Positions 27,499 through 32,998 of a stretch of 64,000 nucleotides of DNA are shown here, piece by piece (positions within the stretch are counted from its first letter, which is position 1; every line of letters starts with the position of its first letter). The translations under genes were made by a program, and so were the position numbers. This DNA comes from Polyangiaceae bacterium (lineage in GTDB: Bacteria; Myxococcota_A; Polyangia; Polyangiales; Polyangiaceae). The notes beneath the pieces are model-generated. The model made no database searches, was not told the DNA's origin, and saw only the letters and a program-made list of their open reading frames with translations. Where the stretch lies: NCBI GenBank assembly GCA_044224495.1, contig JBGAKG010000027.1, positions 93,521-157,520 of the forward strand. Reading direction: 5' to 3'.

Positions 27499-28278
27499 AT
27501 GGAGACCGTTTCCCTCACCGCCTACGCCATCGCAACCATCCGCGCGATGGAGCAAGAGCGCCCTCCCGCCGAACGTCTCTTCGAGGATCGGATCGCCTCG
27601 ATCTTCGCGCGCGATGGCGCCGACGCCGCGGAGGGGACCAAGCGCTTCTTGGAGCTCCCGTTCCTCGTCGACGCCATTCGGATGCGCACGCGCTTCAACG
27701 ACGAGCTCGTGGAGAGCGCCGTTCGGAGCGGGCTCCGGCAGGTGGTCCTGATGGGGGCCGGGTTCGACTCGCGCGCCCAGCGATTGCCCGCGCTCGCCTC
27801 CGAGGGCGTGCGCGTCTACGAGATCGACCTCCCGGCGCTCGTCACGCGGAAGGGCGCGCTCCTCGATGCCGCTGGCGTCGCCACTCCGAACGTCGTGCGG
27901 ATCGCGTCCGATTTCTCCGACGCCGCGTTCGGGGGCAAGCTCGCCGCCGATCTCGCGGCCGCCGGCTTCCGCGCCGGCGCAGGCGCCGTCTTCGTGTGGG
28001 AGGGCGTGGTCGCCTACCTCGGGCGCGATGCCGTCGAGCGCACGCTCCGCTTCATGGCCGCGCAGGGCGGGCCCGGCAGCCGACTCGTGTTCGAGAGCGC
28101 TCCGGCCGCGTTCGAGCCGGAGACGGCGGAGGACGCCGTGCGCGCCGCCGGGTTCTCGTCCGCGGAGGTGACCTCGTTCGCGACGCTGTGGAAGCAGTGG
28201 CTCGGCGGCACGCCGCACGAGAACGCGGAGATCGTGCAGGCCGTGGTCGCACGGATCGACGGCGCCGCGCTGAGCTAA
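27499..28278 (+). CDS. class I SAM-dependent methyltransferase (LCMT/TIGR00027-like)
   Basis: VVLMGAGFDSRAQRL motif and overall similarity to leucine-carboxyl/TIGR00027 MTases. Confidence 0.7.
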   Translation: METVSLTAYAIATIRAMEQERPPAERLFEDRIASIFARDGADAAEGTKRFLELPFLVDAIRMRTRFNDELVESAVRSGLRQVVLMGAGFDSRAQRLPALASEGVRVYEIDLPALVTRKGALLDAAGVATPNVVRIASDFSDAAFGGKLAADLAAAGFRAGAGAVFVWEGVVAYLGRDAVERTLRFMAAQGGPGSRLVFESAPAAFEPETAEDAVRAAGFSSAEVTSFATLWKQWLGGTPHENAEIVQAVVARIDGAALS

Positions 28279-29684
28279 TTGCCGCCCGGCGCTCGACGCG
28301 CGCGCTGCTGGACGATCTCCAGTGCCGCGACGCGGTACGCCTCCGCGAGCGTCGGGAAGTTGAAGATGGTCTCGACGAGCTGGTCGACGCGGAAGCCGGC
28401 TTGGATCGCGAGTTGGCCGATGCCGACGAGCTCCGCAGCGCCCTCGCCGACGACGTGCGCGCCGAGGATGCGCTCGCCGGCGCCGTCGGCGACGAGCTTG
28501 AGGAACCCGCCTTCGGTCGCGGCGATCATGCCGCGCGTGATCTCCGAGAACGACGCTCGCCCGACCAGGACGTCGCCGTGCCGCGCGCGCGCCTCGGCTT
28601 CGCCGAGCCCGATGCTCGCCATCTCCGGGATCGCATAGACGCCGGTCGGGATCAGCTCGGCGGCCGGTCCGGGGTCGAGGCCGAGCGCGTCGCACACGGC
28701 GCGGCGCCCTTGCTCGGTGGACGACGCCGCGAGCGAGGGAGGGCCGATGACGTCGCCGACGGCCCAGATCCCCTGCACGGCGGTCCGACAGCGCTCGTCC
28801 ACCGCCAGGAGCCCGCGCTCCGTCGGCACGAGGCCCGCCGCGTCGAGCGCGAGCCCCTCGAGGTTCGCGATCCGACCGAGCGCGCACATGAGCTTGTCGG
28901 CGCCGAGCTCGGTGCCGTCGTCGAGGACGACGCGAACGCGATCGACGCCGTTCCACTCGACCAAGGTCGGCCGGCGCCCGCCGATGAAGCGCCCGCCGAG
29001 TGCGCCGAAGCCCTCGACGAAACGCGCCGTGAGCTCGGGCTCGACGAACGACACCGGGCGCGGCGCCTTGTCGATCATGGTCACGGCGACGCCGAGCGCC
29101 GCGAAGATCGATGCGTACTCGCTCGCGATCACCCCCGCGCCGAGCACGATGAGCGAGCGCGGCAAGTAGGTGAGCGACAGGATGGAGTCGCTGTCCAGGA
29201 TGTGCTCGTGGTCGATCGGGATCTCCGGCGGGCTCCGCGGCCGCGACCCGGTCGCGATCACGATCGCACCCGCATCGACGCGGCGCCGCTCGCCGCGGAC
29301 GGTGCGGAGCTCGATCGCATCGCGCGCGACGAAGCGTGCCCGCCCGTGCAGGAGCGTGACGCCCGCCTCGCGCAGCTTCTGACCCATCACGCGCTCGTGC
29401 GCGGAGACCACGTCTCCGACGCGCTTCATCAACGCGGCGACGCGGACGTCCTCCGGAACCTCGGTCACGAGGACGCCGCCGGTCTTGCGCGCGAACGCCG
29501 AGAACGCGAGGGCGGTCTCGCGGAGCGTCTTCGAAGGGATCGTCCCGCGCGTGACGCCCGCGCCACCGACGGCGGCGTCTTGCTCGACGACGGCGACGCT
29601 CCGCCCGGCGGCGGCCGCCGTCAGCGCGGCGCGATGCCCAGCCGGGCCCGCGCCGATGACGACGACGTCCCATCGATCGGTCAT
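28275..29684 (-). CDS. pyridine nucleotide-disulfide oxidoreductase without redox-active disulfide (soluble transhydrogenase SthA-like)
   Basis: DVVVIGAGPAG FAD fold; GGAGVTRGTIPSK replaces the CxxxxC of lipoamide dehydrogenases; NAD fold LIVLGAGVIASEYA; dimerisation domain; ATGA overlap with upstream HDOD gene. Confidence 0.75.
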   Translation of the reverse strand: MTDRWDVVVIGAGPAGHRAALTAAAAGRSVAVVEQDAAVGGAGVTRGTIPSKTLRETALAFSAFARKTGGVLVTEVPEDVRVAALMKRVGDVVSAHERVMGQKLREAGVTLLHGRARFVARDAIELRTVRGERRRVDAGAIVIATGSRPRSPPEIPIDHEHILDSDSILSLTYLPRSLIVLGAGVIASEYASIFAALGVAVTMIDKAPRPVSFVEPELTARFVEGFGALGGRFIGGRRPTLVEWNGVDRVRVVLDDGTELGADKLMCALGRIANLEGLALDAAGLVPTERGLLAVDERCRTAVQGIWAVGDVIGPPSLAASSTEQGRRAVCDALGLDPGPAAELIPTGVYAIPEMASIGLGEAEARARHGDVLVGRASFSEITRGMIAATEGGFLKLVADGAGERILGAHVVGEGAAELVGIGQLAIQAGFRVDQLVETIFNFPTLAEAYRVAALEIVQQRARRAPGGN

Positions 29685-30965: not shown

Positions 30966-31003
30966 CCAGGAACGACGTACGGTCGCGCGCGGGCGAGCTT
31001 CAA

Positions 31004-32998
31004 TCAGGCGCGCTTCTTCGGCAGCACCTCGGCGACGACCGTTCCCGCTCCGACCGGGAGCGAACCGACGAGCCGCTCGACGACCTCGCTCACGCTCTCT
31101 CCCCCGAGGATCGCGAGCGGCGCGACGTTCTTCGAGAGCTCGGCGGCGAGCTTCTGGTTTCCGAGCATCTTCAAGGTGGTGACGAGCTCCGGCTGGATCG
31201 CCGCCATCTGCTCCTTGAAGACGTGCGCCCGCGCCTCGAGCTGCTTCCGCTCGAGCTCGTGCTCGCGTGCGAGCGCGTCCGCCTTGGCCGCGGCACCCAC
31301 GCCGTACGCCTCGGCCTCGACCCGCGCACGCTCGAGCCGCTCCGAGGCTTCCAAGTCGAGTTGGGACTTCGCCTGTGCCAAGACGAACAGGCGGCGACGC
31401 TCCTCGTGCGCGATCGCACGCCCGAGGGTCTCGATCTGGGCGTCGTAGACCGCGCGGCTCACCTCTTCCTTGAGCCGCTCGGTGTCCAGGCGCAGCATCT
31501 CCTGGCGCCGGTTCACGTCGGCCACGATCGCGTTGCGCTGCGCGTCACCGATGAGGCTCTGCACCTCTTCGTCCAGGATTCGAACGTCGAGGACCTCCAC
31601 GTCGTAGATCCAGAGCCCGTTCTCCTCGAAGTAGCGGCCGGGGCGGGGCTCGCTCCCGACCTTCTCGCCCAGCACGGCACCGCGCAGGATCTCGGTCGAC
31701 GCCCGATAGAACGCCTCGAGCGGCGTGGAGCGGACTGCGGCGCGGAGGAGAGAGCCCGCGTGATCGCACAGGAGCGCGACGTAGTCCTTCACTTGGAACC
31801 AACGGAGCGTGCCGTCCTTCGCGGGCAGGAAGGAGACGCGGTACGACACCGACACCTCGACCTCGTTGTGATCGGCGGTCTTCAGCGTGAGCGTGTCGGA
31901 CACCTTGTTGCCGTCGATCTGGAGGAAGCAGGTGCGGAGCTTCTGCTCCGCCGACTTGGGGTTGCCGGTGGAGAGCTCGAGGATCTCGAGCTCCTCGTCA
32001 TGGCCGAGGATGCGCGTCTCCGGACCGCGCACCACCTCGCGTGCGCCGCGCCCGACGACCTGCACCGCGAAGCCGCTCGGGATCGCGACCGCGACGGCGC
32101 GCCCGTTCTCCTGGCGCGCGTTCCACAGCTTCCGGACCGCCTCGCCGACCGGCCGCGGCACGATCTCGACCCGCGTCGGATCGGGCAGGAAGTTCACCGG
32201 GCCCACGACCGTGTCGATGTGGCCGGTGGCGAGATCGCGCACGTACACGCCGTCGCCGGCGGCGATCGGGATCGCGCGGACATAACCGACGACCTCGACG
32301 TGCTCGGTCGGGAAGAAGTAGCCCTCGCGGTTGGCGAGGAACACGTCCTGCCCGGCCTCGTAGCGACCGGGCGGCACTTGGTCGCCCGCTTCGGCGACGA
32401 ACGACTTCGCGACGCGCAGGTGCAGGCCGGTCGACTTCACGAGCCGATGAGCGAGCCGCACGAACGAGCCATCGGACTGCGGGATGACCTCGAGCCCGGT
32501 CGGCGGAACGTAGTAGGTCGTGTCGGTCCCGCGCACGACGTAGACGTTGCCGATCGTGTGGCCGTCGAGGTGATCGTAGCAACGCAGGAGCAGGTACTGA
32601 TCCTCGCGCAGCACGTGACCGCTGATCACGCGCGCGCGCTGGCCCGGCCAGAGGGGGAACGTGGCAGGCCCGGGGACCACGATCCGGCGCCCGACGAGGA
32701 GCTCGACGGCGCTGTTGTTTCCCTTCGTCGCGCGGACGTTCGGATCCTTCGGCGGGTTCTCGAGCACGATGTACTGCGACGAGGACGCCGCGACGAACGC
32801 GCTCACGCCGCCGCCCTCGTCGCCGCGCAGAGGAACGAAGCGCCCTTCGCGGAAGTCGACGAGCCGCTCGGTGTTGGAGAGGCTGATCTTGGTGGGCCCG
32901 ACGTAGAGGACGATGTCGCCCTTCGTCAGATCTTGGACGTAGGCGTACTCGTTGGACGCCACGAGGATGTCGCGCTCACGGATGTCTCGATCGCTCAT
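31004..32998 (-). CDS. major vault protein (MVP) homolog
   Basis: N-terminal MVP-type repeats (YAYVQDLTKGDIVLYVGPTKISL; FPLWPGQ resembling eukaryotic FPLYPGE); shoulder region LKTADHNEVEVSVSYRVSF resembling eukaryotic IETADHARLQLQLAYNWHF; long C-terminal coiled-coil (cap-helix-like). Confidence 0.75.
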   Translation of the reverse strand: MSDRDIRERDILVASNEYAYVQDLTKGDIVLYVGPTKISLSNTERLVDFREGRFVPLRGDEGGGVSAFVAASSSQYIVLENPPKDPNVRATKGNNSAVELLVGRRIVVPGPATFPLWPGQRARVISGHVLREDQYLLLRCYDHLDGHTIGNVYVVRGTDTTYYVPPTGLEVIPQSDGSFVRLAHRLVKSTGLHLRVAKSFVAEAGDQVPPGRYEAGQDVFLANREGYFFPTEHVEVVGYVRAIPIAAGDGVYVRDLATGHIDTVVGPVNFLPDPTRVEIVPRPVGEAVRKLWNARQENGRAVAVAIPSGFAVQVVGRGAREVVRGPETRILGHDEELEILELSTGNPKSAEQKLRTCFLQIDGNKVSDTLTLKTADHNEVEVSVSYRVSFLPAKDGTLRWFQVKDYVALLCDHAGSLLRAAVRSTPLEAFYRASTEILRGAVLGEKVGSEPRPGRYFEENGLWIYDVEVLDVRILDEEVQSLIGDAQRNAIVADVNRRQEMLRLDTERLKEEVSRAVYDAQIETLGRAIAHEERRRLFVLAQAKSQLDLEASERLERARVEAEAYGVGAAAKADALAREHELERKQLEARAHVFKEQMAAIQPELVTTLKMLGNQKLAAELSKNVAPLAILGGESVSEVVERLVGSLPVGAGTVVAEVLPKKRA

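Follow-up and report, generated by a model that had tools for sequence, protein, structure and literature searches.

The stretch analysed here comprises 64,000 nucleotides of a Polyangiaceae bacterium (GenBank assembly GCA_044224495.1, contig JBGAKG010000027.1, positions 93,521 to 157,520 of the forward strand) and is referred to in its entirety as the window. Its principal element of interest is an open reading frame (ORF) on the minus strand at 31004-32998, which is a genuine bacterial homolog of the eukaryotic major vault protein (MVP). The gene, the parts of its product and the two elements that precede it are as follows.

31004..32998, minus strand: MVP homolog gene, 664 amino acids, short six-repeat form, stop codon included; support from Pfam, PDB and Foldseek
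31919..32998, minus strand: residues 1-360, six predicted beta-sheet vault-type repeats (AlphaFold2 strand pattern, Foldseek, Vault_3)
31571..31918, minus strand: residues 361-476, MVP shoulder, SPFH-like (PF11978; alpha/beta fold in the model)
31166..31570, minus strand: residues 477-611, counterpart of the cap helix, one continuous helix of about 135 amino acids (DSSP; aligns with MVP 647-800)
31007..31165, minus strand: residues 612-664, counterpart of the cap-ring, a conserved C-terminal segment (hhalign, conservation)
33011..33026, minus strand: -24/-12 sigma-54-type element CGGCACGCGCCGTGCT, ending 12 nucleotides (nt) before the MVP ATG and conserved across Myxococcota
33068..33094, minus strand: three-arm inverted repeat GGAGCG-N4-CGCTCC-N5-GGAGCG, a candidate site for an enhancer-binding protein or, alternatively, a hairpin that terminates the upstream gene

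In a window of such high G+C content spurious ORFs are numerous, and third-position G+C was used to tell real genes from them; by this measure the MVP frame reads as coding (0.92 at third positions, 0.42 at second positions). As to its identity, Pfam places MVP_shoulder (PF11978) at residues 364-476 with an E-value of 9.1e-27 (93.9 bits against a cut-off of 25), together with Vault_3 at residues 305-360, this second match lying barely over its curated cut-off (29.3 bits against 28.8). When the 664-residue protein was compared with all PDB sequences using phmmer, major vault proteins were the sole matches (E = 4e-31), with residues 184-589 corresponding to human MVP 324-764 and TADHNEVEV paired with TADHARLQL; residues 184-360 are aligned by HMMER with the MVP repeats R7-R9. 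A profile built from 40 family members matched PDB MVP at 1.7e-49, and alignment of the family profile with human MVP using hhalign gave 1.4e-31 over residues 148-651, extending into the cap-ring up to human residue 853 (the human sequence used for this purpose agrees with the stretches printed in the HMMER alignments to PDB entries). Homology to eukaryotic MVP is thereby shown to run from the last three repeats through the shoulder and the cap helix to the cap-ring tail, at an identity of about 22-27%.

Structure prediction leads to the same assignment. The AlphaFold2 model of the monomer has a mean predicted local distance difference test score (pLDDT) of 77, and when it was compared with the PDB using Foldseek, ranks 1-12 were all vault shells (7e-33 to 3e-27), followed by a murine MVP R1-R7 fragment (4e-11). 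Flotillin, prohibitin (PHB), HflK/C and stomatin cages form a second tier at E-values from 1e-6 to 1e-4, more than 20 orders of magnitude behind the MVP structures. The predicted fold is thus shown to match vault shell subunits over its full length, and the idea that this might be merely a generic SPFH/band-7 protein fails on the same ranking, with vault shells first and SPFH cages appearing only at 1e-6 and weaker. The Pfam family Band_7 does not match the window protein, while it does match 3 of 40 relatives. No NCBIfam model matches the MVP-like protein, a PHROGs search returned nothing, the PADLOC defence models returned nothing for MVP or for two of the genes downstream of it (ORF2 and SthA, described below), and no solved bacterial MVP structure is among the PDB matches, whether from phmmer, the profile or Foldseek.

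The identification had been proposed in an earlier note, made from the sequence alone, and in this respect that note is supported. The peptides on which it relied occur in the protein (YAYVQDLTKGDIVLYVGPTKISL, residues 18-40; FPLWPGQ, 114-120; LKTADHNEVEVSVSYRVSF, 372-390); the resemblance it saw in the shoulder is significant, given the PF11978 match and the alignment of the TADH motif with PDB MVP; and the likeness of its C-terminal coiled coil to the cap helix is matched by a significant alignment to MVP and by the 135-residue helix of the model. Profile searches and monomer prediction together yield shoulder and repeat hits and a repeat/shoulder/cap-helix architecture.

Architecture, distribution and origin of the protein

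The strands of the model place the repeat boundaries at about residues 12-66, 67-125, 126-183, 184-240, 241-300 and 301-360, giving six repeats in 360 residues as against nine in eukaryotic MVP. Beyond the shoulder, the long cap helix (477-611) and a cap-ring segment follow in the same order as in MVP, the alignment continuing through MVP 647-853; short C-terminal helices succeed the 135-residue helix in the AlphaFold2 model, and column identity is 0.79 at residues 612-650. Among 40 relatives MVP_shoulder and Vault_3 were found in every one, Vault_4 in 35 and Vault_2, weakly, in nine. There is no membrane anchor or other hydrophobic segment, no 19-residue stretch of the protein containing more than 12 hydrophobic residues. 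The number of repeats varies inside the subfamily, most Polyangia-type copies having six and Myxococcia-type copies seven: the Myxococcaceae/Archangium-type and Planctomycetota copies (L012, L017-L020, L022, L033, L060 and others) are 700-720 amino acids long and carry one extra repeat-like insertion, for instance TLLEGEYCILLAPNGETRYRRGPAVIFPGP, between repeats 3 and 4.

The most strongly conserved part of the protein lies near its N-terminus, where residues 7-47 have a column identity of 0.99 across 40 sequences that average 0.60 overall. Over 39 codons compared in this region, third positions differ at 32.5% and first and second positions together at 2.5%, from which it follows that the constraint acts on the protein rather than on an RNA or DNA element. 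Long-form bacterial MVPs carry a looser version of the same motif (DLVLxPNEFAYVxDxTKGxVxxxVGPxKxSLS). The relationship of this region to its eukaryotic counterpart is harder to pin down by sequence comparison: the first 131 residues, searched alone against PDB sequences, gave no MVP match, a profile of the N-terminal region from 23 forms, short and long, gave nothing in the PDB at E≤1, and local alignment of an N-terminal profile with human MVP 1-420 by hhalign yielded E-values of 0.006-0.03 with an ambiguous pairing of repeats, the colinear R1-R1 pairing being only the third alternative (E = 0.03). The vault-repeat fold of the N-terminal part is taken from the structure model, in which residues 1-110 have pLDDT values of 39-62. 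Of the MVP-type N-terminal repeats that the earlier note described, the beta-repeat fold is therefore present in the model, while the resemblances to R1 and R2 motifs do not reach significance at the level of sequence. In eukaryotic vaults the N-terminal domain of MVP mediates dimerisation of half-vaults and pairing of nascent chains (PMC13100048), and by analogy the invariant segment may be a surface through which two half-shells dock, perhaps with a further partner.

Relatives of the protein are plentiful. Of 8,000 candidates scored in a word-indexed search, 938 (clusters at 90% identity) reached E<1e-5, the best 120 of which are all 53-88% identical to the window protein and 590-723 amino acids long; an exhaustive search of 50% representatives gave 1,105 matches, 494 of them below 1e-30. 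At 50% identity the short subfamily (650-720 amino acids) collapses to one single representative, and the relatives outside it found in the same search are mostly of 810-930 amino acids and 33-44% identical. A scan of one genome per species, using two subfamily-specific peptides (and so liable to miss divergent copies in isolates), found 64 loci (L003-L066), nearly all in Myxococcota bins (Polyangiaceae, Labilithrix, Haliangium, Kofleriaceae, Myxococcaceae/Archangium), the others being a few Planctomycetota and Acidobacteriota, one bin labelled Clostridia and one labelled Methanosarcinales. All 64 are metagenome-assembled genomes and none is a cultured isolate, which may account for the lack of experimental work; no experimental study of a bacterial MVP was found in the literature searched.

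A neighbour-joining tree of 56 genomic copies falls largely into taxonomic groups (Polyangia, Haliangia-type and Myxococcia), with the non-myxobacterial copies forming one nested clade, and the composition of the MVP gene matches that of the surrounding genome (the window has about 70% G+C throughout, and the region is not distinct). Because the tree tracks taxonomy and the composition is native, long residence in Myxococcota with occasional transfer is suggested, and both lines of evidence argue against a rare, recent acquisition. The earlier note had taken a bacterial MVP to be rare and probably horizontally acquired; neither view is supported, the first in the face of the 938 clusters in the subfamily and the 1,105 representatives in the wider family, the second in that of composition and tree.

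Nor is the existence of such proteins new. Reviews still call vaults exclusively eukaryotic (e.g. PMC11855390), yet bacterial homologs, including myxobacterial ones, were reported in silico in 2013, 2019 and 2023: Daly et al. described copies in Corallococcus, Plesiocystis and others (PMC3762200), Sokolskyi analysed those of Myxococcales, Cytophagales and Oscillatoriales (bioRxiv 10.1101/872010), and a 2023 preprint added phage copies and reported an average length of about 822 amino acids for the bacterial proteins (10.1101/2023.11.10.566534). Named examples from these sources include Corallococcus coralloides H8MNI3, Plesiocystis pacifica A6FXM1 and A6FXE2, Enhygromyxa salina A0A0C2D5V5, and copies from Saprospira, Microscilla and cyanobacteria (PMC3762200; 10.1101/872010; 10.1101/2023.11.10.566534). 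The window protein is a further member, from a compact six-repeat subfamily, of a kind already known from sequence analysis.

Two further observations came from the searches. Three records of huge "uncultured phage" (LR756500.1, LR756501.1 and LR756503.1, 462-735 kb), which are without annotation, encode MVP-like proteins about 31% identical to residues 2-500 of the window protein, and the Methanosarcinales-labelled bin (L065, at 8001-10280) has a homolog of 34% identity, which could reflect either inter-domain spread or a binning error.

The region upstream of the MVP gene

When the 70 nt preceding each MVP start were aligned, a motif of the type TGGCAC-N5-TTGCW became apparent. This was then scored by requiring GG and GC at fixed spacing and at least 9 of 12 matches, on the sense strand and no more than 100 nt upstream, and a qualifying site was found in 41 of the 45 Myxococcota loci. 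Of 746 regions preceding other ORFs of these loci, 21 (2.8%) passed the same criterion, as did 2.3% of random windows, and on the antisense strand a qualifying site was present in one locus out of 45. In the non-myxobacterial copies the motif is absent. A sense-oriented element with the sequence characteristics of a -24/-12 promoter is thus shown to be conserved directly upstream of the MVP gene. A reading of the motif as a palindromic operator was set aside, given its strand specificity (41 sense sites against one antisense) and the fact that the Myxococcaceae versions are not dyads.

The distance from this element to the start codon falls into classes. It is exactly 12 nt in 16 of the 41 scored sites, that of the window included, and 34-39 nt in 15 loci, where the Myxococcaceae members of the class show a visible Shine-Dalgarno sequence. 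Taking the 12-nt spacing together with the usual geometry of a -12 element, the transcript would be expected to begin about 2 nt before the ATG, so that the MVP mRNA of the window would be near-leaderless; the frame contains no start codon farther upstream. A consensus scan of 28000-33800 for sigma-70 promoters and terminators detected neither a sigma-70-like promoter nor an intergenic terminator. In the literature searched there was no paper that treats MVP together with sigma-54, and the conserved, predicted sigma-54 control of the gene is the most useful new point to come out of the analysis.

It must be remembered that matches to such a motif also arise by accident. The window contains seven sigma-54-like sites, which is about what chance would produce, and for this reason those without comparative support are not considered meaningful. 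Apart from the MVP site and one that precedes the HDOD gene (see below), they lie at 13739-13754(+), 24360-24375(+), 60145-60160(-), 52061-52076(+) and 5489-5504(+); one sigma-54-like match stands about 26 nt before the start of a gene for an RTX-repeat protein (13747-15720).

Some 55-70 nt farther upstream lies the inverted repeat at 33068-33094, which is kept in close relatives and is found at the same position (-84 to -87) in L026 and L034 despite a different upstream gene there. If up to one mismatch is allowed, CGCTCC-N5-GGAGCG is found in 8 of 45 loci and in 0.8% of background windows; if up to two are allowed, the figures are 23 of 45 and 7%. Its distance from the promoter varies across clades. 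On this evidence the repeat is a candidate activator site.

The downstream genes and their wider context

On the same strand as the MVP gene, and immediately following it, are three further genes, which the earlier note had combined with it into an operon coupling a cage-forming protein to signalling and redox functions. Together with the other features of the neighbourhood they are listed here.

30516..30965, minus strand: ORF2, 149 amino acids, a conserved four-helix core of about 100 residues and a non-conserved tail; its ATG lies 38 bp past the MVP stop
29681..30523, minus strand: HDOD/HD-domain protein, 280 amino acids (Pfam HDOD, PF08668, 1.5e-42; HD, 5e-12; TIGR00277 HDIG, 31.4 against 27.6)
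28275..29684, minus strand: SthA-type soluble pyridine nucleotide transhydrogenase, 469 amino acids (NCBIfam PRK05249 equivalog, 483.1 bits against 465; Pfam Pyr_redox_2 and Pyr_redox_dim)
30538..30553, minus strand: second sigma-54-like site, TGGCACCCTGTCTGCA, within the tail of ORF2 and 14 nt ahead of the HDOD ATG
27499..28278, plus strand: LCM-family methyltransferase gene, convergent, closing the minus-strand run (Pfam PF04072, 3.9e-38)
33108..33620, minus strand: Cys-rich lipoprotein gene upstream of MVP, adjoining it in the closest relatives only
33653-34618, minus strand: 321-residue protein without family match, part of the minus-strand run
34908-36449, minus strand: Rieske/FAD reductase, part of the minus-strand run
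26287-27300, minus strand: rubrerythrin-like ORF, in the redox-flavoured neighbourhood
25037-25546, minus strand: DUF1993, in the redox-flavoured neighbourhood

Two of the three downstream assignments are secure, since the second gene is a full HDOD protein and the third clears the PRK05249 cut-off, as the earlier note had supposed. The same HDOD gene is called in L067 (identical in sequence to the window), and PADLOC gives only marginal Cas3-HD noise for its product. The description of ORF2 as a truncated HDOD-like protein, on the other hand, lacks any profile support: it has no Pfam match even at E≤10, a PDB profile search found no HDOD relationship, and comparison with the adjacent HDOD protein by BLASTP returned E 0.14. 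It is modelled as a unit of four helices, of which the top three Foldseek matches (3p3q, 3i7a and 9qzk, which we take to be HDOD-domain proteins) have non-significant E-values of 0.17-1.3, so that to call it similar to the N-terminal half of an HDOD domain is a reasonable guess and not a result. Third-position G+C is 0.88 in its first 100 codons and 0.64 in the tail. The ORF2 family is small (six clusters at 90% identity, on a few Myxococcota-like contigs), shares the core motif LPVLHEIL...DPAVSA...PVLA.RL...LGNRGFE.VLLELLEDLTVLRA, and also occurs away from MVP and HDOD, as with the relatives at L068 8001-8294 and L071 649-981, sometimes standing alone beside an ECF sigma/FecR pair.

The case for a single operon has some obvious attractions. 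Four genes follow one another on one strand, with 38 bp separating the ATG of ORF2 from the end of MVP, an overlap of 8 bp between ORF2 and HDOD (ATGGGTGA) and one of 4 bp (ATGA) between HDOD and SthA; the scan showed no terminator-like site in the gap that follows MVP; L001 and L002 have the same arrangement; and there is a redox flavour to the neighbourhood at 25037-41993, which besides SthA and the Rieske and FAD reductase contains a KatG-type peroxidase (39648-41993, plus strand), the rubrerythrin-like ORF and others. The 4-bp ATGA overlaps described in the earlier note apply to HDOD/SthA alone, a pair that is translationally coupled; the remaining junctions are of the other kinds just given.

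Comparison across loci tells a different story. When the neighbours in the window were searched by tblastn against the fetched loci, ORF2, HDOD and SthA were found downstream of MVP only in L001 and L002, where MVP is 87-88% identical (and in L067, being the window sequence); already in L003, with an MVP 84% identical, the upstream synteny is kept and the downstream genes are different, and neither HDOD nor SthA lies within 8 kb of MVP in any of the other approximately 60 loci. De novo clustering of all flanking ORFs from 67 loci revealed no conserved MVP partner. The sole multi-locus cluster, of Ser/Thr kinases, was rejected as a partner, its members being at scattered positions and reflecting the abundance of paralogs, and the immediate neighbours of MVP are otherwise miscellaneous (a cytochrome-c-like lipoprotein, a family-1 glycosidase, an esterase, a DNA methylase). 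The redox-type neighbours, too, do not accompany MVP outside its closest relatives. HDOD and SthA probably have a sigma-54-type promoter of their own: the second site, which taken alone is weak (being one of seven in the window, about the chance number), has its motif and spacing kept in L001 and L002 while the flanks diverge. Since these genes adjoin MVP only in its closest relatives, no neighbour is conserved and the promoters appear to be separate, coupling of MVP to HDOD and SthA in an operon is not supported, and beyond the window sequence itself an MVP-HDOD-SthA neighbourhood is confined, among the loci compared, to L001 and L002.

The window was also searched for the accessory components of eukaryotic vaults. 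Rfam scans at gathering thresholds and a tRNA scan returned nothing, and thus no vault-RNA-like or Y-RNA-like gene, and among about 34 window ORFs scanned none has the PARP or TROVE domains of vPARP and TEP1. A WD40-repeat ORF at 20195-22390 on the plus strand was rejected as a TEP1 component, its sub-threshold match to the TEP1 beta-propeller model being generic and of the kind expected from ordinary WD40 similarity; this ORF overlaps a Ser/Thr kinase ORF (22065-24266, plus strand) by about 325 nt in a different frame.

Interpretation and comparison with known systems

The explanation that we judge best, and consider reasonably probable, is that the locus carries a short bacterial MVP gene which stands by itself and is transcribed from a sigma-54 promoter when an activator permits, its product self-assembling into a vault-like shell. 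On this explanation, sigma-54 RNA polymerase would be held at 33011-33026 and would fire only once an enhancer-binding protein, encoded elsewhere, had bound upstream, possibly at the GGAGCG/CGCTCC repeats of 33068-33094, the transcript starting in this lineage about 2 nt before the ATG. The protein would then assemble side by side into a ring-symmetric half-shell capped by the long C-terminal helices, and two such halves would dock through the invariant N-terminal repeat to give a closed cytoplasmic particle with a barrel shorter than the eukaryotic one, its cargo being encoded away from the MVP gene. As part of the same explanation, ORF2-HDOD-SthA would be a separate, lineage-specific unit and not a functional partner of the shell protein.

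There are clear caveats here, and several points weigh against the explanation. On the regulatory side, sigma-54 dependence is read from sequence alone; some Polyangiaceae -24/-12 sites double as a GCACG-N3-CGTGC dyad, so that a repressor site is conceivable there; a gene for an activator is rarely near, an enhancer-binding protein being encoded within 8 kb of MVP in 2 of 67 loci; the upstream repeat could be simply the terminator of the lipoprotein gene; and, there being no terminator between MVP and ORF2 in the scan, read-through into ORF2-HDOD-SthA is possible in this lineage. As regards the particle, shell assembly is argued by homology with eukaryotic MVP, six repeats might not close a barrel in the way that nine do, repeats 1 and 2 are the least confident part of the model, and no significant similarity in sequence was found between the N-terminal repeats and eukaryotic MVP, either with the 131-residue query or with the profile of 23 forms. 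The loci used for comparison, moreover, are almost all metagenome bins.

The main rival is that the protein forms a half-dome apposed to a membrane, in the manner of SPFH cages, with the invariant N-terminus contacting the membrane or a membrane protein. The shoulder is indeed an SPFH-type fold, flotillin, PHB, HflK/C and stomatin are the next-best folds, Band_7 is recognised in a minority of relatives, and eukaryotic vaults can associate with membranes (PMC13100048). The window protein, however, has no transmembrane or hydrophobic segment, and the position of the SPFH N-terminus is taken by six vault repeats, just as in MVP; moreover, an R1-type motif is common to the long-form bacterial MVPs and is weakly colinear (E = 0.03) with eukaryotic R1, the interface between half-vaults. 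Because an anchor is lacking and the R1 motif is retained, this rival is rated lower than a closed shell, and we consider it unlikely. A second rival, which seems to us more doubtful still, is that the protein is a non-caging relative of MVP (a soluble scaffold, filament or sheet) that has kept the fold and lost the closed shell. The reduction from nine repeats to six, the low confidence with which the first two are modelled and the failure of the window scans to find vault accessory components would all fit; set against them are the retention of every domain class of the eukaryotic shell, including the cap helix and cap-ring tail, and strong conservation over the full length (mean 60%, with 99% in the N-terminal core). 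Finally, that MVP, ORF2, HDOD and SthA form one operon tying a cage to signalling through HDOD and to the transhydrogenation of NAD(P)H, for instance by encapsulating or scaffolding the enzymes, we regard as very improbable, linkage being missing in L003 and all of the other approximately 60 loci, no neighbour being conserved anywhere in the family, ORF2 homologs existing without MVP or HDOD, and HDOD having a sigma-54-like site of its own that is conserved in L001 and L002.

If the preferred explanation, that of a closed shell under sigma-54 control, is extended to the family as a whole, an MVP of six or seven repeats would be built into closed vault-like particles by many Myxococcota that are uncultured, as well as by some few Planctomycetota and Acidobacteriota, the Myxococcota doing so only on a signal conveyed through a dedicated sigma-54 activator; we put this forward tentatively, its chances seeming to us somewhat short of even. 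Were it true, it would place vault architecture firmly in bacteria and provide a simple, single-gene, inducible system in which to ask what vaults are for, a question that has stood unresolved since the particles were discovered. The window adds no new kind of object. Three things are gained from the comparison: the subfamily is compact, with six repeats of which the N-terminal one hardly varies; its gene stands alone, neither cargo nor partner being encoded in cis; and a sigma-54 promoter is conserved across Myxococcota. Such a promoter implies that the gene stays silent until a particular activator and signal turn it on. To identify these would lead directly to the physiological role of a vault-type shell in bacteria, and would also dispose of the misleading lead of HDOD/SthA coupling; it is in this sense that sigma-54 control would make that role approachable by experiment.

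Set beside the systems already known, the closest likeness is to eukaryotic MVP itself (human and rat; PDB 4V60, 9BW5, 11DR and others), with which the window protein shares the shoulder, repeats of R7-R9 type, a cap helix, a cap-ring-like tail and freedom from any membrane anchor; it differs in having six repeats and 664 residues where the eukaryotic proteins have nine and 861-893, in N-terminal repeats without detectable sequence similarity, and in a promoter of bacterial sigma-54 type. Unlike the complete vault ribonucleoprotein, it has no vPARP, TEP1 or vault RNA beside it in the window, and its assembly is a prediction. With the bacterial MVPs reported previously it has in common a prokaryotic combination of vault repeats, shoulder and coiled coil, a largely myxococcotal distribution and a record confined to sequence analysis, the difference being that those average about 822 amino acids, whereas the window protein belongs to a compact subfamily of 650-720. 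The SPFH/band-7 cages (HflK/C, flotillin, prohibitin, stomatin, QmcA) resemble it in having an SPFH-type domain and, after it, a long helix, the helices bundling to form a dome, but they are membrane-anchored and without vault repeats, while the window protein is anchor-free and has six.

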